64,000 nt of DNA from Squalus acanthias. Taxonomy: Eukaryota. Each line of letters starts with the position of its first letter. Within the stretch, counting starts at the first letter, position 1. Location: positions 96,598,001-96,662,000 of the forward strand of contig CM059432.1 of NCBI GenBank assembly GCA_030390025.1, read 5' to 3'. A model generated the notes under the pieces. It was not told the DNA's origin. It did no database searches and worked only from the letters and a program-made list of their open reading frames with translations. Below, piece after piece: positions 4,697-38,440 of the stretch. Made by a program: the position numbers and the translations under genes.

Positions 4697-5415
4697 TCAA
4701 GTGCCAGGCAATGACTATCTCCAACAAGAGAGAGTTTAACCACCACCCCTTGACATTCAACGGCATTACCATTGCCGAATCCCCCACCATCAACATCCTG
4801 GGGGGGGGGGGGCGGTGTGTTCACCATTGACTAGAAGCTTAACTGGACCAGCCACATAAGTACTGTGGCTGCAAGAGCATGTCAGAGGTGGGGCGTTCTG
4901 AGATGAATGTCTCATCTCTGACTCCCCAAAGCCTTTCCACTATGTACAAGCCACAAGTCAGGAGTGTGATGGAATACTCTCCACTTGCCTGGATGAGTGC
5001 AGCTCCAACAACATTCACTTGCTCCACCAAAGGTGCACCGTGGCTGCAGGTTGTACCATCTACAAGATGCACTGCAGCAACTCGCCAAGGCTTCTTCAAC
5101 AGCACTTCCCAAACCCACAACCTCTTCCACCAAGGACAAGGGCAGCAGGTGCATAGGAACACCATCACCTGCAAGTTCCCCTCCAAGTTACACACCATCT
5201 TGACTTGGAAATATATCGCCGTTCTTTCATCGTCGCTGGGTCAAAATCCTGGAACTCCCTCCCTAACAGCACTGTGGGAGTACCTTCACCACATAGACTG
5301 CAGTGGTTCAAGAATGTGGTTCACCACCACCTTCTCAAGAGCAATTAGCGATGGGCAATAAATGCTGGCCTTGCCAGCGATGCCCACATCCCAGGAATGA
5401 ATAAAAAGAAAAAAA
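4697..5415 (+). mobile_element. 3' fragment of the tRNA-headed LINE family (same family as 26891-30131)
   Basis: Shares CQAMTISNKRE and YKxQVRSVMEYSPLAWM and ends gcaataaatgctggcc plus an A-rich tail. Confidence 0.9.
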
Positions 5416-11102: not shown

Positions 11103-11902
11103 GGGCTGGATTTTGCCAATGGGGAGCTTTTGGAGGCGGGACTCCCATTTGTCGGGTTTCTGTCCCACCTCCATCAACTTCTGGCCAACCCATGCTATTT
11201 TCCCTTGATTGATCTTGTTAAGCCTGCCTAGCGGGCTTAGCAGGCCAATTAAGGGAAAGCCGGTTACAGAGACGTTTGACGTTTCATCTGTCAAAAATTT
11301 TTGACAGATGAATTGTCATCATTTGACAGCTCTGTGAAGCTGTCAAACACTGACAGTCTCTGTAGTTTGATGAGTTCTTGAATTCAAGACTCATCAAACC
11401 TCTTTATTTAGCAAAAATTAGAGAATGCAGCGGCCATCTGTCATCTCTGCCGCGGAGGTGCGAGACTCTCCGCATCCCCAACTCTTGAAGCCTGCAGGAA
11501 GAAACAAAGGTAAGTAAACTTTTACTAACACTTTCCACTTACCTCACATACTCACCTCTCCGCACTTGCACCCATCACTCACCTTCACAGCGCACTTTTG
11601 CACCCCTCCGACCCCCGCAGACCCACTGCTCGCCCCGGTGACCCTGGCGGGTTTTGGAGCCTTCGGGAAGCCCGCACTTGTGTGGGTAAAATGGGGATAA
11701 TCCTCTTATTTGCCTGTTAACTACCTGTTAACAGGCACATAAGTGGCACTAATCCCCTTCCCGCCTCCAAGGAGATGGGACCCGGCGCGGGTCGGCTACC
11801 TGCCTCCTGGCAAGATGGCACAGAGGCGGGTTGGGCACCCGCCCCCAGATTCTGCCATTTTCCCGGCAGTCCCGCCTCCCCAGGGCTGGCAAGATCGCGC
11901 CC
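11103..11902 (+). mobile_element. 800-bp Harbinger-type MITE with internal hairpins
   Basis: TIRs GGGCTGGATTTTGCCA / TGGCAAGATCGCGCCC and a CAT duplication. Related copies lie at 19855-20540 and 25056-30713. Confidence 0.85.
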
Positions 11903-11954
11903 CATAATTCGCAGACTGTTTTCATCTCTCACCTGACTCATCACATTTAGTTTC

Positions 11955-19854: not shown

Positions 19855-20540
19855 GGGTTGAATTTTGCCAGCCCTGGGGAGGCGGGTTTGAAGGCAGGAC
19901 TGCTGGGAAAATGGCAGAATCTGGGGGCGGGTGCCCATCCCGCCCCCCAACCCGCCTCCGTGCCATCTTCCCAGGAGGCGGGTAGCCAACCAGCGCTGGG
20001 AGTCACCTCTCTGAGGCAGGAAGGGGATTACAGCCACTTAAGTGCCTGTTAACAGGTAGTTAACAGGCAGTTAAGAGGATTATCCCCATTTTACCCCTAC
20101 AAGTGCGGGCTTCCCGCTGTCGGGAAACCCCCCCAGGGTTAGCGAGGCGAGCAGTGGGTTTGTGGGGGTCGGAGGGGTCCAAAAATGCGCTGTAGAGGTG
20201 AGTGATGGGTGCAAGTGTGGAGAGGTAAGTATGTGAGGCGAATGTAAAGTGATAGAAAATGTTTACTTACCTTTGTTTCTTCCTGCAGGCTTCAACAGTT
20301 GGGGAACCGGAGACTCCCGCATCTCACCGGCAGAGATGACAGATGGCTGCTGCATTCTCCAATGCAACAGCCATCTGATTTCTGCTCAGCAGATAGGTTT
20401 GATGAGTCTTGAATACAAGGCCTCATCAAACAACAGAGATTGTCAGTGTTTGACAGCTTCACAGAGCTGTCAAACGATGACAATTCATCTGTCAAAAATG
20501 TTTGCCAGATGAAACGTCATACGCTGACGTTCTCTGTTCA
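19855..20540 (-). mobile_element. Partial inverted copy of the 11103-11902 MITE
   Basis: Reverse complement of about 11265-11902, beginning gggttgaattttgccagccctgg. Confidence 0.85.
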
Positions 20541-25108: not shown

Positions 25109-26710
25109 TGTAGAGTTTCGCAATTATCGCGATTCAAAATAACATGAGAGAAGCAGATTCAATTGATCATTTTTATTAAACGAAATGCTGTCCTGATAAT
25201 AAAGGACACAGAAGCCTGTAAAATGGCCGCCATGCATCGTGGCAGAAGCTTCCAGAGACACAGTGGGCAGACAAGATGGCGTCGAATATACATTCAGTAT
25301 GAGATCGTATCATACTCGGTACACATTGTAAAGATAGGATGCAACCCGTTCGCATCTTGAACAATAGCAATGATATAAGTGCTGGAATCGTTTCCTACGC
25401 ACAGTAAGGATCATTGAACTGGGCCATCGAGAACCCATCCAGACACATCAATACACAAATACCCCCCCGGCTCAACAATGAGAGAGACATTGGCGGGTGA
25501 TTAAGCCAGTATTCGGGGGGCCCCAAAACCAGTTGAGGAGACGATTCATATACATCCTGGCTGGCTCAACAATGGAGAAGGTATTAACGGATAGTTGGCT
25601 AGTTTCAGATGCTACCGAAACCCGTTAAGAAGATAATCGCCGCATGCTGGGAGTTCTGGGCGCCAAAATCACACAAAGAATAAACGTTTAGATATGAGCG
25701 GGAGATAAGGCCGACAAAGCAGTATAACTATAGGGGACAAATGTCCATCGGTCTCTTGACTCGGGCTGAACCCTCTTGACTCGCTCTCTCGCTTCCTGGC
25801 CTCTTCTTTGACTCTTGACTCTTAGCCGTGCTGGTCGGTTATTCGAGTGTTGGGTGGAACTCAATCGGAACGAGCCGCCTCGACAGAGCAAGTAACAGGG
25901 TACACCATCCCGAGTGTCAGTAAACGGTGTCCGGACCCGGAGGCCCGAGTGACGAGAAGAAAGACGAGAAGAAAGACGAGAAGAAATTCCACGTGCCGCC
26001 ACGGTCAGTAAACCCTGACCGCGCCCGAAGATATAACGACAGAACTCATCTTTGAATTCTACCGACTTCTACATGTACCGTTTCCTTTGAATTCTATGGA
26101 TTACTGCACGATCCGGTTTGAGTCCATCGACTGCTTCATGACATCAGGGAGTCTGGCTTGCCTTTCGCGGCAGCGAGAGTAAACAAGTGGGGTGCAGAAA
26201 CCCTTCCAAACACGTGACAGTCAGGTGCTGCAGCGAAACGAGCTGAGTGCCTCACTTTAAATTTCCGAAGTAAGCTGAGTGGTGAGCATGTTTTACGATC
26301 CTACAAATCCAGACGTAGTGTAGGTATTGTTAAGGGAGGGTGGTTTTTAATAAGGTTAAGGTATAATGTGTTCCCCTTTTTACGATGTGCCGTGTGTTCT
26401 CCATTTCCATAGACCAAGTTTTATGAACGTGTGTATACTTGTACTCTCTTTGATCTGCGCCTATGACATGTATTTCATGATTTTAGACGCCATGCAATAA
26501 AGATATTCATTTCGTGCTATTCAACCGGGTCTATTTGAGTTTTCTCTGCATTACTGCTCCTTGCATCTAAGTCCAGGTGTCAGAACCGTAAGGGCGAGTG
26601 GGTCGAACCACTCACAGGTGCTTATTGCAAAAGGCTGGCCGGAGACCAGAGCAAGCAATAGTATAGGCAACAAAGGCCTCACCTCGCACCAGTACCATTG
26701 ACCACTTACA
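25109..26710 (+). mobile_element. 1602-bp solo LTR (ERV or Gypsy-type)
   Basis: TGTAGAGT...ACTTACA termini, a 4-bp TSD GCGG (25105-25108 and 26711-26714), AATAAA at 26496, internal direct repeats and no coding domain. Confidence 0.82.
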
Positions 26711-26903
26711 GCGGGTCGATGTCCCGCCTTCATCGATTTGTGGGCAAACCACGCTATTTTCCCTTGATTGACCTTGTTAAGCCAGCCCAGCAGGTTTAGC
26801 AGGCCAATTAAGGAAAAGCCGATTGCAGAGAACGTCAACGTATGATGTTTCATCTGTCAAAAATTTTTGACAGATGAATTGTCATTGTTTAAGTGACAGG
26901 AAC

Positions 26904-26986
26904 GGTAGCGTAGTGGTAATGTCACTGGGCCAGTAATCCAGAGGCCTGGGCTAATGATCCAGAGATGTGAGTTCAAATCCCACCAC
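26904..26986 (+). promoter_or_regulatory. tRNA-like internal Pol III promoter (A box + B box)
   Basis: TAGCGTAGTGG at 26906-26916 fits the A box TRGCNNARYGG, and GAGTTCAAATCC at 26969-26980 fits the B box, followed by CACCA. Confidence 0.75.
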
Positions 26987-27233
26987 AGCAGCTGGGGAAT
27001 TTAAATTCACTTAATTAAATAAATCTGGAATAAAAAAGCTAGTATCAATAATGGTAACCATGAAACTATTGGATTGTCGTAAAAACCCATCTGGTTTACT
27101 AATGTCCTTTAGGGAGGGAAATCTGCCGTCCTTACCTGATCTGGCCTATATGTGACTCCAGACCCACAGCAATGTGGTTGACTCTTAACTGCCCTCTGAA
27201 ATGGCCTAGCAAGTCACTCAGTTGTAACTAACC

Positions 27234-30080
27234 ATGACGAAACAAAATAATAAGAATGAAACCGGACAGACCACCCGGCATCGACCTCAGCACCGGCTTC
27301 GGACACGGCAACGGCACACCCAGCCCAGTCAATCCTGCAAAGTCCTCCTCACCAACATCTGGGGACTTGTGCCAAAATTGGGAGAGCTGTCCCACAAACT
27401 AGTCAAGCAACAGCCTGACATAGTCATACTCACAGAATCATACCTTTCAGCCAATGTCCAAAACTCCTCCATCACCATCCCTTGGTATGTCCTGTCCCAC
27501 CGGCAGGACAGACCCACCAGGGGTGGTGGCACAGTGGTATGCAGCCGGGAAGGTGTGGCCCTGAGAGTCCTCAACATTGACTCCGGACTCCATGAAGTCT
27601 CATGGCTTCAGGTCAAGCATGGGCAAGGAAACCTCCTGCTGATTACCACCTACCGCCCTCCCTCAGCTGATGAATCAGTACTCTTCCATGTTGAACACCA
27701 CTTGGAAGAAGCACTGAGAGTAGCAAGGGCACAGAATGTACTCTGGGTGGGGGACTTCAATGTCCATCACCAAGAGTGGCTCAGTAGCACCACTACTGAC
27801 CGAGCTGGCCGAGTCCTGAAGGACATAACTGTCAGTCTTGGCCTGTGACAGGTGGAGTGAACCAACACGAGGGAAAAACCTACTTGACCTTGTCCTCACC
27901 AATCTTCCTGTCGCAGATGCAACTGTCCATGACAGCATTGGCAGCAGTGACCACTGCACAGTCATAGTGGAGATGAAGTCCCGTCTTCACACTGAGAACC
28001 CCCTCCATCGTGTTGTGTGGCACTACCACTGTGCTAAATGGGATAGATTCAGAACAGATCTAGCAGCTCAAAACTGAGCATCCATGAGGCGCTGTGGGCC
28101 ATAGCAGCAGCAGAATTGTATTCCAGCACAATCTGTAACCTCATGGCCCGGCATATCCCTCACTCTACCATTACCACCAACCCTGGATCAACAACGAGTG
28201 TAGAAGAGCATGCCAGGAGCAGCACCAGGCGAACCTAAAAATGAGGTGCCAACCTGGGGAAGCTGCAACACAGGACTACATGCATGCTAAAAAGCAGAAG
28301 AAGCATGCTATAGACAGGGCTAAGCGATCCCACAATCAACTGATCAGAACAAAGCTCTGCAGTCCTGCCACATCCAGTCGTGAATGGTGGTGGACCATTA
28401 AACAACTAACGGGAGGAGGAGGCTCCAAGAATATCTCCATCCTCAATGATGGTGGAGCCCAGCACGTGAGTGCAAAAGACAAGGCTGAAGCGTTTGCAAC
28501 CAACTTCAGCCAGAAGTGCCGAGTGGATGATCCATATCGGCCTACTCCCGAGGTCTCCACCATCACAGAAGCCAGTCTTCAGCCAATTCGATTCACTCCA
28601 AGTGATATCAAGAAATGGCTGAACGCACTGGATACAGCAAAGGCTATGGGCCCCGACAACATCCCAGTTATCATGCTGAAGACTTGTGCTCAAGAACTAG
28701 TCACGCCTCTAGCCAAGATGTTCCAGTACAGCTACAACACTGGCATCTATCCAACAATGTGGAAAACTGCCCAGGTATGTCCTGTCCACAAAAAGCAGGA
28801 CAAATCCAACCTGGCCATTTACCGCCCCATCAGTCTACTCTCAATCATCAGCAAAGTGATGGAAGGTGTCATCGACAGTGCTATCAATCGGCACTTACTC
28901 ACCAATAACCTGCTCACTGATGCCCAGTTTGCATTCCGCCAAGACCACTCGGCTCCCAACCTCATTACAGCCTTCGTCCAAACGTGGACAAAGGAGTTGA
29001 ATTCCAGAGGTGAGGTGAGAGTGATTGCCCTTGACATCAAAGCAGCATTTGACCGAGTGTGGCATGAAGGAGCCCTAGTAAAACTGAAGTCAATGGGAAT
29101 CAGGGGGAAAACGCTCCACTGGCTGGAGTCATACCTAGCACAAAGGAAGATGGTTGTGGTGGTTGAAGGTCAATCATCACAGCCCAAAGACATTGCTGCA
29201 GGAGTTCCTCAGGGTAGTGTCCTAGGCCCAACCATCTTCAGCTGCTTCATCAATGACCTTCCCTCCAACATAAGGTCAGAAATGGGGATGTTCATTGATG
29301 ATTGCACAGTGTTCAGCGCCATTCGCAACTCCACAGATAATGAAGTAGTCCATGTCCGCATGCAACAAGACCTGGACGACGTTCAGGCTTGGGCTGATAA
29401 GTGGCAGGTAACATTCGCGCCACAGATGTGCCAGGCAATGACTATCTCCAACAAGCGAGAGTCTACCCACCTCCCCTTGACATTCAATGGCATTACCTTC
29501 GCCGAATCCCCCACTATCAACCAGGTCAGAGGCTAGGTATTCTGCGGCGAGTGTCTCACCTCCTGACTCCCGAAAGCCTTTCCACCACCTACAAGGCACA
29601 AGTAAGGAGTGTGATGGAATACTCTCCACTTGCTTGGATGAGTGCAGCTCCAGCAACACTCAAGAAGCTCGACACCATCCAAGACAAAGCAGCCCGCTTG
29701 ATTGGCACCCCATCCACCACCTTAAACATTCACTCCCTCCACCATCGGCGTACCGTGGCTGCAGTGTGTACCATCTACAAGATGTACTGCAGCAACTCGC
29801 CAAGGCTTCTTCGGCAGCACCTCCCAAACCTGTGACCTCTTCCACCTAGAAGGACAAGGGCAGCAGGCACATGGGAACACCACCACCTGCAAGTTCCCCT
29901 CCAAGTCACACACCATCCTGACTTGGAAATATATTGCCGTTCCTTCATCGTTGCTGGGTCAAAATCCTGGAACTCCCTACCTAACAGCACTGTGGGAGTA
30001 CCATCACCACACGGACTGCAGCAGTTCAAGAAGGCGGCTCACCACCACCTCCTCAAGGGCAACTAGGGATGAGCAATAAA
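27234..30080 (+). pseudogene. APE endonuclease-reverse transcriptase ORF, disrupted in this copy
   Basis: Motifs PDIVILTES, YRPPS, GDFN, SDH, GPDNIP, YRPISLLS, LDIKAAFDRVWH, GVPQGSVLGP and FIDD. Confidence 0.9.
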
Positions 30081-32191
30081 TGCTGGAATTGCCAGCGACG
30101 CCCTGATCCCATAAACGATAAAAAAAAAAAATTCTCTGCAGTTTGATGAGTTCTTGCATTCAAGACCTCACCAAACTTCTTTGTTTTACAGAAATGAGAT
30201 GGTTGTTGCATCCGAGAATACAACGGCCATCTCTCATCTGCAACACGGAGGTCCGAGACTCTCCCCATACAAACCAACTGAAGCCTGCAGGAAGAAACAA
30301 AGGTAAGTACATTTTTAAAAACTCTTTGCACTTAACCTCAGATACTCACCTCTACACTCTTGCACCCATCACTTACACCACACTTTTGCACCCCCCCCCC
30401 CGACCCCCGCAGACCCAGTACTCGCTGAGCTGAGCTGAGCTGAGCTGGCGTATTTTGGAGCCTTTGGGAAGCCCACAATTGTGAGGGCAAAAAGGGGATA
30501 ATCCTATTTTTTGCCTGTTAACTACCTGTTAACAGGCAGTTAATAGGCTTTAATCCCTTCCCGCCTCTAAGGAGATGGGACCCGGCGCGGGACGGCTACC
30601 CGCCTCCTAGGAAGATGGCATGGAGGCGGGTTGGGCACCTGCCCCCAAATTCTGCATTTTCCCAGCAGTCCCACCTCCATACCCGCCTCCCCAGGGCTGG
30701 CAAAATCGCCCCCCCCGGTTCCAATCTGATTCAGGTGCAGCCCGTCCCAGCAGTACAGCTCCTTCCTGTCCCAGTACTGGTGCCAGTGTCCCAAGAAATG
30801 GAACCCCTTGTTCCCACACTAATGTGTCAGCCAGTCTTTCACCTTCCTGATCTGTCTATCCCTATGCTAATTAACATTTGGCTTGGGTAGAAATCCCGAG
30901 ATTAACACCAGTGAGGTCCTGTTTTTTTAATTTAGTTCCTTCCTTCTGATATTCCCTTAGCAGGATCTCCTCCTTTTTCTTCCCTATATTATTGATCCCG
31001 ACATGGACCATGACAACTGGATCTTCCACCTCCCTTTCCAAGTTCCTCTCCAGTTGCTCTGAGATATCCTTTACTCTTGCACCAGATAGGCTCTCAGTTG
31101 TGACTGCAGAGGATGCTATCTATCCCCCTAATAACAAATCTCCTATGATTACAACCATTCTATTCTGCTCCTCCCCCCTTGGACTGCTTCCTGCTCCATG
31201 GTGCCATTGTTAACATTCTGGCCATCCTCCCTGCAGGCTTCATCCTCATCCTCACAGGTAGTAACTGCATTATACCTGTTAGATAGGACCAGTGTCTGCG
31301 GGACCTTCTTCTCTGCCTCCCCTTGATTTCCCCAACCCTGCTGACTGACAGTCACATCCTCACATTCCTCTGAGGGCACTCCCACAGTACCGATAGAGAA
31401 CTATCCAAAAATTCCTCCCCTTCCCTAATGTGTCAGAGTGTCTCTAACTCACACTCCAGCTCAATGACTCTGAGCTGGAGTGACTCAAGGCAGAGCCATT
31501 TCTTGCAGATGTGGCAATCCGGGACAGTCTCGCTGTCCACAAGCTCCCACATATTGCAATCCCGACACACTGCCTGTGCTTCCATCTCTACTTTTTATTT
31601 ATTTATTAGTTAGTGGTCATTTATTTCTCGAGCTAATATAATCACTTGGAGGTCTAGTATTAAATAGCTAATGGATTTGTTTGATTTCAAATTAATTAGT
31701 AATTAATTACTCTGATTATTATTTATGTATAGCAGATATTTATTTAATGTAAATTGGATCCCTTTAATGTTGGTTTCTTCCACTTAGTTTATTTTGTCCC
31801 CTTAGATCTATTTAGCCTCTTAAATCTGTTTGTTTACTTAAAGGATATTGTGTATGCTCTTAATGCTTAAGATAAATGATAAATTAAACAATTAGCTCTA
31901 ATTCCTCAGGTCTGCTGCTCCTCACTCTGTGCTGACTATGACGTCACTTTTTGAGTTTTCCCCTCTGTCTGGTATCTGCTGCTCCGGGTCTCCTGATACT
32001 CTTGGCTGCCGCCGCCGGCTCTCTCACGCTGATTAAATCTGCCACTCTGGGTCTCCCGATATGCTCTGCAAATGCTACCCTACACTGTGACAATGCCTTC
32101 AATGTACGGTATTCTATAATAAACTTCTGTATAATTAAAAGTTTTACATCTGCTGTGTGTCCGCAGTGTGTGGAAAAGTACGTTATATATT

Positions 32192-32552: not shown

Positions 32553-33915
32553 GGTTTTGGATTAATGTCTGTTGCACTTACTTGATTAACTCAAACAACC
32601 GCTATCTGATGCTGCTGACAAAGGGTTATGCTTGAAACATTTTCATTACAGATGGAGATGGACCTGCATTTTCTGGTTTTGTTTCAGATTTCCAGAATTT
32701 GCACTTTTTTTATTCATTCTATTAACCATACTGGTTCATTTAAATATAGATCACAACCCAACAGAAAGCTAGGAAGAGCTACCAATCACAAGCCAACAAC
32801 CCACACAAATCCGACAAATAAAACTGTTCCGATGAAAGGTCATTGACCTGAAACGTGTTTCTCTCTCCACAGATGCTGCCTGACCTGTCGAGTGTTTTCT
32901 ACTATTTTAAATAAAATTGTTCATTTTTATCAAAACTGCCAACAAAGAATGAACAATTGTCAAGATAAACCAATCCAATTGTTCAAATAATTCGCTCACA
33001 CTATTTCTATTTCATTTAATTGAGTATACACAGCTGACGTTAAAAGAGCCTATTTTCTGCTCTCCCCCACCCACCCTCTGCCAGGTGTCAGATAGCTGCA
33101 GCATGCCAGCATACTGTGCCTGTAGAGGAAACAGTGTGTTGCAGTTTCTTAGCATGGCCTGGGTGCACTTTGCAGTACAGGAATGCTCTCTGGCAGGATT
33201 TTGCACTGAGTGGTACTGTTGTTTGTGTTAGAAACAGTGCAGGAAATTTGTGAGACTGTTCGATGCTGAATCATCAATCAGGCCTTTAGCATGGCAAATG
33301 ACCACCTGTGCAAAGTGCTGGCCATTGCTTGTGGGAAAAGCTCTATAGAAATGAAAGCTTCAGCAAGAAGTATAGCGTTAATTTTCTGAAATTACAGTCC
33401 TGGTGGGGATCCTCAGTCACCTGGAGTACATAATAGGGATTCATTAAAATTAAAGGATGGAAATGATGGAGATCATGGGGTAAAATTCAACTTCAGCGAG
33501 GGCGCAAAACTTGTGGTAGTGGATCGGCTGTTCATTATACACCCAGCCTGTTTTTCCTTCGGGCATGGTATATAACGAGAAGTCAATCCAATACCATTTT
33601 GTGCACTTGCCAAAGTCGAATTTGATTCCCCACAAGTCTAAATCACATATTTACACTCCCGCTGGGCTAAGTTCCCTGCCAGGAGCATGATTTTTAAAAT
33701 GTCAATTTTATTTATTTATTCATTGGCGGGATGTGGGCGTCGCTGGCAAGGCCAGCATTTATTGCCCATCCCTCATTGTCCTCGAGAAGGTGGTGGTGAA
33801 CTGCCTTCTTGAACCGCTGCAGTCCATGTGGTGAAGGTACTCCCACAGTGCTGTTAGGGAGGGAGTTCCAGGATTTTGACCCAATGACGATGAAGGAATG
33901 GCAATAAATATCAAA

Positions 33916-34114
33916 CGTGAGAAGTCGCACAACACCAGGTTATAGTCCAACAGCTTTATTTGAAATCACAAGCTTTCGGAGCGCTGCTCCTTCATCAGGT
34001 GACAAAGGAGCAGCACTCCGAAAGCTTGTGATTTCAAATAAAGCAGTTGGACTATAACCTGGTGTTGTGCGACTTCTCACATTTGTCCACCCCAGTCCAA
34101 CACCGGCATCTCCA
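33916..34114. mobile_element. 199-bp fold-back Penelope-type mini-insertion containing a hammerhead motif
   Basis: Inverted arms of about 76 bp (33917-33992 and 34005-34080) and a 14-bp TSD caataaatatcaaa (33902-33915 and 34115-34128). Confidence 0.85.
33966..34002 (-). ncRNA. Minimal type I hammerhead ribozyme
   Basis: Minus strand reads TCAC-CTGATGA-AGGAG-cagcg-CTCC-GAAA-GCTT-GTGA: intact core, stems I and II, and a palindromic stem III. Confidence 0.8.
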
Positions 34115-34620
34115 CAATAAATATCAAAGTCAAGATGGTGTGTGACTTCGAGGGGAACTTGGAGGTGCTGGTGTTCCCATGCACCTGCTGCCCTTGTCCT
34201 TCTAGGCGGTAGAGGTCGCGGGTTTGGGAGGTGCTGTCAAAGAAGCCTTGGCGAGTTACTGCACTACATTTTGTAGATGGTACACACTGCAGCCATGGTG
34301 CGCCGATGGTGGAGGGAGTGAATGTTTAAGGTGGTGGATGGGGTCCCGATCAAGCGGGCTGCTTTATCCTGAATGGTATCGAGCTTCTTGAGTGTCGTTG
34401 GAGCTGCACTCATCCAGACAAGTGGAGAGTATTCCATCACACTCATGACTTGTGCCTTGTAGATGGTGGAAAGGCTTTGGGGAGTCAGGAGGTGAGTCAT
34501 GTGCCACAGAATACCCAGCCTCTTGTAGGCACAGTATTTATGTGGCTAGTCCTGTTAAGTTTCTGGTCAATGGTGACCCCCAGGATGTTGATGGTGGGGG
34601 ATTCGATGACGGTAATACCA

Positions 34621-35158
34621 TTACAAAGGATATACGGCACAGAAACAGGCCATTTGGCCCAACGAGTTCATGCCGGCATTTATGCTCCACTCGAGCCTCC
34701 TCCTATCTTTCCTCATCTAACTCTATCAGCATAACCCTCTATTCCCTTCTCCCTCATATGCTTATCTAGCGTCCCCTTAAATGCATCTATACTATTTGCC
34801 TTAACTACTCCCTGTGGTAGCGAGTTCCACATTCTCACCACTCTCTGGGTAAAGAAATTTCTTCTGAATTCCCTAGTTGATTTCTTGGTAACTATCTTAT
34901 ATTGATGGCCTCTAGTTATGCTCTTCCCCACAAGTGGAAACACTCTGAATCAACTCTATCAAAACCTTTCCTAATTTTAAAGACCTCAATTAGGTCACCC
35001 CTCAGCCTTCTTTTTTCAAGCGAAGAGAGACCCAGCCTGTTCATCCTTTGCTGATATGTATACCCTCGCATTTCTGGTATCATCCTTGTACATCTTCTCT
35101 GCACCCTCTCCAGTGCCTCTATATCCTTTTTATAATATGGCAACCAGAATTGTACGCA
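34621..35158 (-). mobile_element. CR1 3' fragment
   Basis: ORFs 34713-34943 and 34916-35160 (CVQFW...LEKRRLRGDLIEV). Confidence 0.9.
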
Positions 35159-37429: not shown

Positions 37430-38440
37430 GGAAAACAGAAAATGCTGGAAATACTCAGCAGGTCAGGCAGCATCTGTGGAGACGGAAAGAGAGTTAACGT
37501 TTCAGGTTGATGACCCTTCATCAGAACTGGAAAAAGCTGGAGATGGAACAGGTTTTTAAGCAAGTGCAGGGGCAGGGAAAGGGGGGAGGGGAGGAAAGAA
37601 CAAAAGGGAAGGTCTGTGATAGGATGGAAGGCAGGACAGATTGAGAGACATTAAGAGATGCTGCAAGGCAAAAGGAGATGGTAATGGGACAAGTTAAGAA
37701 ACAAAAGATGGCTCTAGATGAAGTGTAAAAAAAAAATGAATGGGAAAAAAAGAATAGGGGCAGAGGTTATGGTCTGAAATTGTTGAACTCTATGTTGAGT
37801 CCAGAAGGTTGTAAAGTGCCTAATAGAAAGATGAGATGCTGTTCCTCGAGCTTACGTTGAGCTTCATTGGAACAGTGTAAGAGGCCAAGGACGGTGAGGT
37901 CTGAGTGAGAGTGGAGTGGAGAATTAAAGTGACAGACGACCGGAAGCTTGGGGTCACCCTTACGGACTGAATGGAGGTGTTCCGCAAAGCAGTCACCCAA
38001 TCTGCATTTGGTCTCCCCAATGTAGAGGAAACCGCATCGTGAGCAGCGAATACAGTATAATGTGGTCTCCTCTACATTGGGGAGACCAAATGCAGATTGG
38101 ATGACCGCTTTGCGGAACATCTCCGTTCAGTCCGTAAGGGTGACCCCAAGCTTCCGGTTGCCTGTCACTTTAATTCTCCACTCCACTCCCACTCAGACCT
38201 CACCGTCCTTGGCCTCTTACACTGTTCCAATGAAGCTCAACGTAAGCTCGATGAACAGCATCTCATCTTTCTATTAGGCACTTTACAGCCTTCTGGACTC
38301 ATCATAGAGTTCAACAATTTCAGACCATAACTTCTGCCCCTATTCTTTTTTTCCCCATTCATTTTATTTTTTATTTTTTTTACACCTCATCTCGAGCCAT
38401 CTTTTGTTTCTTAACTTGTCCCATTACCATCTCCTTTTGC
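37430..38440. mobile_element. Penelope-like 3' fragment (-, 37430-38058) joined head-to-head to an inverted copy (+, 38061-38440)
   Basis: The GIY-YIG C-terminus is encoded on both strands (ORFs 37767-38120 on - and 38097-38330 on +). Confidence 0.9.
37491..37530 (-). ncRNA. Minimal hammerhead ribozyme in a Penelope 3' region
   Basis: Minus strand reads AGTT-CTGATGA-AGGGTC-atc-AACCT-GAAA-CGTT-AACT. Confidence 0.72.

Follow-up and report, generated by a model that had tools for sequence, protein, structure and literature searches.

Can an autonomous, protein-coding long interspersed element (LINE) be driven from a tRNA-type promoter by RNA polymerase III (hereafter Pol III), and how would such an RNA be translated? 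The question is raised by a 64,000-nucleotide (nt) stretch of the Squalus acanthias genome (assembly GCA_030390025.1, contig CM059432.1, forward-strand positions 96,598,001 to 96,662,000; hereafter the window), in which a first-pass annotation made from the sequence alone had noted an element with a tRNA-like head, one coding frame and no run of four thymines (T4) on the sense strand, and had suggested that its coding RNA is made by Pol III and translated without a conventional cap. The textbook split, as given in the section of PMC10886601 cited here, sets LINEs, which are coding and transcribed by RNA polymerase II (Pol II), against short interspersed elements (SINEs), non-coding and transcribed by Pol III; a successful LINE running on a tRNA promoter would, if true, break it. 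The element belongs to a real and already catalogued family, Zenon, on which the 5' end is both undescribed and unusual. As a whole, the best explanation of that end, toward which the sequences incline us slightly, is that Zenon RNA is made by Pol III and its translation started by a tRNA mimic.

Identity of the element and its family

Sequence comparison identifies the element as an elasmobranch Zenon LINE of the CR1 group. Elasmobranch Zenon elements without open reading frame 1 (ORF1) and with a poly(A) tail were catalogued by Stuart et al. 2026 (PMC13343379), and over the 400 nt displayed there the SquAca_Zenon-1 row is by eye nearly identical to our family consensus. The window family shares with those elements a length of about 3.3 kb, an APE-RT protein, the absence of ORF1, the poly(A) tail and crustacean relatives; in the parts of the catalogue available, the family is thus already known, and its missing ORF1 and its tail are general Zenon traits. 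The words "tRNA", "polymerase III" and "start codon" occur nowhere in the main text of that paper, and no description of the head, the T-run avoidance, the missing AUG or the hairpin discussed below was found in the literature searched, from which subscription papers, Repbase and Dfam were excepted. The window copy has the following features:

26899..30131, + strand: full-length, decayed Zenon LINE copy, 3.3% from the family consensus, inserted in another repeat without a target-site duplication
26899..26991, + strand: tRNA-derived head with a D arm, an anticodon arm (26925-26941), a long variable arm (26946-26962), a weak T arm and no acceptor stem (by eye)
26906..26916, + strand: A box, kept in five species
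26969..26980, + strand: B box, matching the consensus perfectly in three of the five species rows and one base short in the ray row
26992..27233, + strand: conserved leader with several upstream AUGs and a long-range helix (27090-27094 with 27158-27162)
27196..27221, + strand: hairpin resembling an anticodon stem-loop, with 4 bp, a small internal loop, 4 bp and a 7-nt loop CUAGCAA (27206-27212) containing AGC (27208-27210)
27201..27209, + strand: miniature upstream open reading frame (mini-uORF) AUG-GCC-UAG, in frame, inside the hairpin
27234..27236, + strand: first conserved codon GCU, complementary to the hairpin AGC, decayed to ATG in the window copy
27234..30066, + strand: APE-RT frame, a single frame of 971 codons in the consensus with its first Met near codon 285, broken in the window copy
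about 27354-27806, + strand: APE domain (Pfam PF03372, E 9.5e-10)
about 28796-29497, + strand: RT domain (Pfam PF00078, E 1e-34)
30075..30080, + strand: AATAAA in the 3' untranslated region
30120..30131, + strand: A tail of 12 A

The element had been placed from 26891; comparison with two empty copies of the host repeat assigns 26891-26898 to that repeat, moves the true start to 26899 and reveals no target-site duplication. The annotated APE and RT domains were recovered by Pfam and the AATAAA and A tail lie where listed, while the reported lack of ORF1 is borne out by a 335-nt leader that holds no frame of 60 codons ahead of the main frame, about 250 nt of it separating the B box from that frame, as described. 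The single APE-RT frame exists in the majority consensus of 30 copies (3.3 kb, one long frame, no T4) but not in the window copy, which is dead: it has three premature stops (27846, 28075 and 29833) and four frame gaps (after 27854, 28102, 28175 and 29521, one of them 67 nt).

The family is large, with at least 7,189 leader-bearing copies (exact leader-end patterns, 4894+1479+182+504+130) in a genome of 3.7 Gb. The 206 distinct leader-bearing rows include four well-covered subfamilies at most 5.8% apart, and these copies differ from their own subfamily consensus by 3.3-11.2%. Within the first 400 nt of the published rows, judged by eye, the Zenon elements of CarCar, RhiTyp, ScyCan and HypSab (white shark, whale shark, catshark and stingray, making five species with SquAca) share the head, the leader, the hairpin and GCUA, and the hagfish and coelacanth rows have no such head.

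A tRNA-derived head as the family's 5' end

Both promoter boxes were confirmed at the annotated positions by their familiar consensus forms. Rfam matches a tRNA to 26905-26984 with a score of 18.6 bits that falls short of the gathering score (29), and ARAGORN calls no tRNA in the window head. The first-pass annotation had asked whether full-length copies consistently carry the head, and starts, flanks and the five species rows together rule out a chance SINE neighbour. Twelve of the 30 best full-element matches, the window copy included, begin within 14 nt of 26891, one starts at 33, and the other 17 are 5'-truncated at 166-821; full-length copies begin sharply, 7-8 nt ahead of the A box. The 49 head-bearing copies have 48 different 5' flanks (one pair is duplicated), and among 20 upstream flanks compared the sole common piece was one 21-nt match, with no alternative shared 5' end. 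With head plus leader as query (about 30 nt of frame included), all 30 loci fetched enter the frame and 28 extend well into APE; when 30 were fetched by the leader only, 25 continued into the frame, four jumped to the tail and one did neither. The five elasmobranch consensus rows open, by eye, with the same boxes, and across the part displayed the acceptor stem has gone and the variable arm shows compensatory change. These comparisons argue firmly that a tRNA-derived head was acquired as the 5' end of the family before sharks and rays split.

The nearest homologues have proteins 37-43% identical and lie on contigs of 3-4 kb, one cluster being named Penaeus. The clade-mate L192 has an ordinary AUG, no visible head, one T4 and a T fraction of 0.20, and because it starts in this ordinary way the oddities of the family are not clade-wide. 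A head or a loss of T4 as a clade-wide trait was considered and set aside: a frame of at least 500 codons was present in 113 of 151 distant loci, none with both boxes by pattern and all with T4, but many contigs do not reach the 5' end. For 60 of the 151 loci ARAGORN gave no hit, which says little because it also misses the window head. Neither relatives nor the leader were found in the viral contigs searched, and a protein search with APE only gave no matches.

Avoidance of T runs

No T4 occurs on the sense strand across 3241 nt (26891-30131), as had been claimed, and the A4 runs number 16 (15 without the tail, close to the roughly 15 reported); the neighbouring CR1, said to have many T4, has 17. 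No T4-free stretch of the window, on either strand, is longer than the one that the element forms (3320 nt; the next is 1987), an internal T4 is lacking in 22 of 30 copies, and the consensus and each of the four well-covered subfamily consensuses have none. Two further pieces were placed by sequence comparison:

4697..5415, + strand: 3' fragment of the same Zenon family
33706..34622, - strand: rearranged 3' fragment of the same Zenon family

Both also lack sense T4 (719 and 911 nt), as annotated, and because they belong to the same family they are not independent evidence.

The proposed comparison with shuffles and CR1 controls divides the original claim. The bare count does not carry it: for the window copy, P(no T4) is 0.009 under base shuffling and 0.109 under dinucleotide shuffling, and it is 0.22 for the consensus (dinucleotide) and 0.13-0.17 under codon-preserving nulls. 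Selection removing terminators is favoured instead by tests that depend on context. Where a synonymous site allows T or C, T stands in 138 of 340 cases with no run, 39 of 139 with a run of two, five of 42 with three and none of one with four, so that its use falls with run length (41%, 28%, 12%, 0 of 1; Fisher P 3.4e-4); the same test is flat in the 113 distant relatives (64-66%) and in the CR1 segments of the window (66, 60, 54 and 63%). TTT runs in the frame number 5 against 11.4 expected under synonymous shuffling (P 0.003), and pentamers with four T in five number 1 against 6.8 (dinucleotide, P 0.009) or 5.7 (synonymous, P 0.02), with no deficit of either in the CR1 controls. Additionally, Phe makes up 1.85% of the family protein, below all 120 homologues among the matches listed (minimum 2.1%).

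A frame without a usable AUG

For about 285 codons the consensus frame lacks any in-frame AUG; its first Met lies after the APE domain. Its first conserved codon reads GCT in 4894 genomic copies, ACT in 1479 and ATG in about 18. Recurrent reversion of GCU to AUG was considered for the last and rejected: ATG is common to about 18 copies on many backgrounds, but the counts fit ordinary CpG decay through ACG (ACT/GCT 0.30; ACG about 91, GCG about 121 and GTG about 13, these three scaled from the first 100 rows listed). An in-frame UAA stands 9 nt ahead of GCU in the two young subfamilies, and AAG is the only shared in-frame near-cognate codon. The stretch before APE behaves as coding in the main frame, with synonymous/non-synonymous changes of 8/6 and 4/1; read in the frame of a downstream, out-of-frame AUG, the changes are 2/10 and 1/4. 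The distance from GCU to a conserved Asn is a multiple of three in 87 of 97 cases, in part through slippage of AAT repeats, and in the displayed rows of the four other species GCU is by eye in frame, with a linker 1 nt shorter in one. From the N-terminal coding signal, the spacing and the upstream UAA, we infer that the protein starts at or just around GCU, without an AUG. The absence of a usable AUG from the family frame lends support to the suggested translation without a conventional cap.

The hairpin ends 12 nt upstream of GCU, and on paper its loop AGC pairs with that codon; CUAGCAA fits the 7-nt pattern of an anticodon loop. As far as the published rows extend, loop and GCUA are invariant in the five species while linker and downstream bases vary, and where the stem has an A.C mismatch, the oldest subfamily carries G-C and the ray A-U. 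Across the 3.3-kb consensus the strict hairpin-plus-codon motif is present a single time, at GCU, and in 128 kb of window strands five times; one of 4000 leader shuffles gave it in frame near the start, or 17 of 4000 without the loop rules. Elsewhere in the leader, the long-range helix (27090-27094/27158-27162) shows one compensatory change, U-A in three subfamilies and A-U in the oldest; across 128 rows this pair is T-A in 88, A-T in 23 and A-A in 11. Another leader pair is by eye changed on both sides in the displayed part of the whale-shark row.

Further resemblances were noted around these structures. The head's anticodon and variable arms (26925-26962) and the hairpin at 27202-27216 look like three versions of one arm, and the loops of the head and start hairpin are one base apart (CUAGUAA vs CUAGCAA), with the closing pair changed on both sides. 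By eye, 27191-27198 could pair over about 8 bp with 30057-30062, the last codons of the frame, near the commonest deletion junction described below, a possible 5'-3' contact.

Tails and short derivatives

In 24 of 91 family tails, T4 or longer stands directly ahead of the A run. T+ SINEs such as Can are similar in their tRNA head, AATAAA and a T run, long or short depending on the copy, ahead of the A tail, and differ in being short and non-coding; their terminators shorten and regrow, according to the section of PMC9599045 cited here.

A pattern joining the leader end to the tail within 30 nt gave 230 matches (control 0) with many junctions, some of which keep the last codons of the frame. 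Examples of these derivatives (L061-L080) are about 410 nt long with the head and stand at 75-96% to the consensus, several of the 20 being 5'-truncated, and they show what defines a SINE2: a tRNA head, a short non-coding body and a tail shared with a LINE. Among 30 loci picked by the old-type hairpin only, 20 reach the tail within 330 nt, four enter the frame and six do neither, and of the 53 deletions exceeding 2 kb, 47 have their break no more than about 30 nt behind the hairpin, up to 20 of these loci having been selected for that. Because some derivatives keep coding ends, the sequences establish that these SINEs derive from the LINE and not the reverse. The short internally deleted elements (SIDEs) of lepidopteran Zenon called Persaeus (PMC6740152) likewise join 5' and 3' Zenon ends through an internal deletion; Persaeus, however, has no tRNA homology and no Pol III promoter, whereas the shark derivatives inherit the tRNA head, with many different junctions, and are SINEs by structure because they do so. 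A LINE that does run on a tRNA promoter would thereby offer a direct route from LINE to SINE through one deletion.

Proposed mechanism and known systems

In the explanation that we favour, the head probably serves as an internal Pol III promoter for the whole 3.3-kb RNA. The polymerase would pass through a body purged of T runs and near-terminators, and AATAAA with the tail T run would lead to polyadenylation, as in T+ SINEs. Since an RNA made by Pol III is uncapped and the frame has no usable AUG, the protein would have to start in an unusual way. By analogy with the internal ribosome entry sites (IRESs) of viruses, and as the most economical model, the hairpin may mimic an anticodon stem-loop paired to the in-frame GCU and sit in the ribosome like pseudoknot I (PKI) of the dicistrovirus type 6 IRESs, with decoding beginning at the codon after GCU; we advance this tRNA-mimic initiation tentatively, as a serious possibility. 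The protein would then copy its own RNA by target-primed reverse transcription, which is established for the group and would generate both the 5'-truncated copies and the SINE-sized head, leader and tail deletion derivatives, both of which are seen.

The likeness to type 6 PKI comprises an anticodon-like loop, a variable A-rich linker and a complementary codon at a frame without AUG, and codons for Thr as well as GCU are typical at type 6 starts in the portions cited of PMC12221177, PMC10516663 and bioRxiv 2024.04.17.590008. It differs in that the Zenon leader has the PKI-like part only, with 3-4 bp, in a cellular retrotransposon rather than a virus, and is known here from sequence alone. Until now, initiation-factor-free IRESs that mimic tRNA have been known from RNA viruses only. 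Were the hairpin a PKI mimic, factor-free initiation would have a cellular example, which would also offer a clue to the origin of such viral IRESs, which those papers, in the same portions, leave open. A LINE bearing a tRNA-like sequence has a precedent in RTE-1_DAn and related elements (Kojima 2018; PMC5786205, in part), which belong to the RTE clade. The Deu-SINEs of sharks (SacSINE1) share the tRNA head and the shark host, and the tail of SacSINE1 is common with L2-2_CM; a Deu-SINE origin of the leader was considered and dropped, since the Deu and Meta domain alignments displayed in PMC7245038 do not by eye resemble it.

The widest version of the proposal is unlikely when taken whole. It would have a vertebrate autonomous LINE running throughout modern shark and ray history with both a Pol III promoter and a cellular IRES that mimics a tRNA and dispenses with initiation factors, with a leader that may descend from a duplicated tRNA anticodon arm, and shedding ready-made SINEs by deletion right behind the mimic.

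Weighing the alternatives

Several points weigh against Pol III transcription and a tRNA-mimic start. A 3.3-kb RNA is far beyond the usual length of a Pol III product. SINE-like lengths are limited by Pol III, according to the section of PMC10886601 cited here. Under the fairer nulls, zero T4 would by itself arise in 11-22% of cases; C4 runs are depleted too (P 0.017), stratifying by neighbouring base gives weak tests (P 0.03, 0.22 and 0.28), T3 under the dinucleotide null has P 0.11, and the subfamilies, at most 6% apart, are not independent. Fewer than four T precede the A run in 67 of the 91 tails. As to the start, the P value of the hairpin motif is optimistic because the motif was defined after being seen; loop and codon never vary among the subfamilies and five species, so that no covariation speaks for their pairing; only 4 bp (UAGC:GCUA) are possible, and the usual type 6 geometry would give the +1 frame. 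Shuffled sequences fold as well as the leader does (z 0.22 and z -0.09; hairpin z -0.9), and an out-of-frame AUG about 20 nt downstream is kept in all five published rows, as far as these are displayed. Rfam finds no IRES match in the leader, and the PKII, PKIII, 6a/6b L1.1 and stem-loop IV and V (SLIV, SLV) motifs described in the portions available were not recognised there by eye; their absence lowers the case for membership, not for likeness, because some subtypes, on the same partial evidence, lack SLIV, SLV or PKIII.

It is possible, if somewhat doubtful, that the frame is started without tRNA mimicry, whatever the polymerase: by reinitiation or read-through after AUG-GCC-UAG, at a near-cognate codon, or from the downstream AUG with a -1 frameshift. 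AUG-independent reinitiation has reportedly been described for L1 ORF2. The mini-uORF is in frame, in good context in three of the four subfamilies, and its UAG is followed by CAA; it is present in all five species rows as far as displayed, but its AUG position reads GUG in the oldest subfamily, the young subfamilies add the in-frame UAA, and in the displayed whale-shark row it is shifted out of frame. ACG follows GCU in three subfamilies and could serve as a near-cognate codon, yet it is replaced elsewhere by ACA or AAA. The downstream AUG, found in all five displayed rows, reads AUA in the consensus of three subfamilies, and the frame it opens is not conserved.

Alternatively, the head could be a captured SINE-type 5' untranslated region, the coding RNA being made by Pol II from an internal promoter or by host read-through and Pol III serving only the short derivatives, with T poverty reflecting general LINE strand bias or avoidance of splice or polyadenylation signals. 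This we consider unlikely, though it would accommodate the lack of significance of the T4 count under dinucleotide and codon nulls, the fact that CCCC, TCTC and CTCT are the most depleted tetramers, the T4 poverty of the headless L192 (one T4, T 0.20), and the AATAAA and A tail, which are compatible with Pol II. It does not account for avoidance that depends on run length for T and is absent for C and the controls, nor for copy starts that fall sharply 7-8 nt ahead of the A box, and seven AUGs before the hairpin, none of which starts the frame, suit cap scanning badly. More improbable still is that the head works as an RNA structure and not as a promoter, for instance as a signal for processing or ribosome binding by which the 5' end of read-through transcripts is set. 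The D, anticodon and variable arms are kept, the last with a compensatory change, the A and B boxes double as tRNA loop sequences, and the head's 3' end can pair over 7 bp with a leader loop; by eye, however, the acceptor stem is absent and the T stem weak, both of which the tRNA-processing enzyme needs, and T-run avoidance would not be predicted.

Neighbouring repeats and other observations

The host repeat (26712-26898 plus 30132-30714; further copies at 11153-11903 and 19862-20536) contains a cluster of TGACAG/CTGTCA palindromes. Within it lies a perfect 26-nt palindrome near 26852-26877, and the window copy lacks 23 nt of the cluster. Another repeat, common to L029 and L275, lies just upstream of the element at 26165-26687. 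LINE fragments also contain inverted structures, head to head, at 33912-34085 (86-nt arms, 2 nt between) and 37727-38370 (311-nt arms, 22 nt between).

Four sequencing runs cover the element from head to tail and carry leader-to-tail joints, on contigs that do not record start, strand or level, two of the runs being only guessed to be RNA. The metatranscriptome runs X19 and X20, one labelled coral, contain the whole element, mostly at 80-95% likeness, and these copies probably stem from a shark or a ray that contributed to the sample. Eukaryotic LINE contigs are present in many bacterial genome bins (L191-L261) built from samples associated with animals, most likely as host contamination. Finally, the relative P0016 carries, ahead of its endonuclease, a motif that we take to be 2A-like (StopGo), which the window family does not have.

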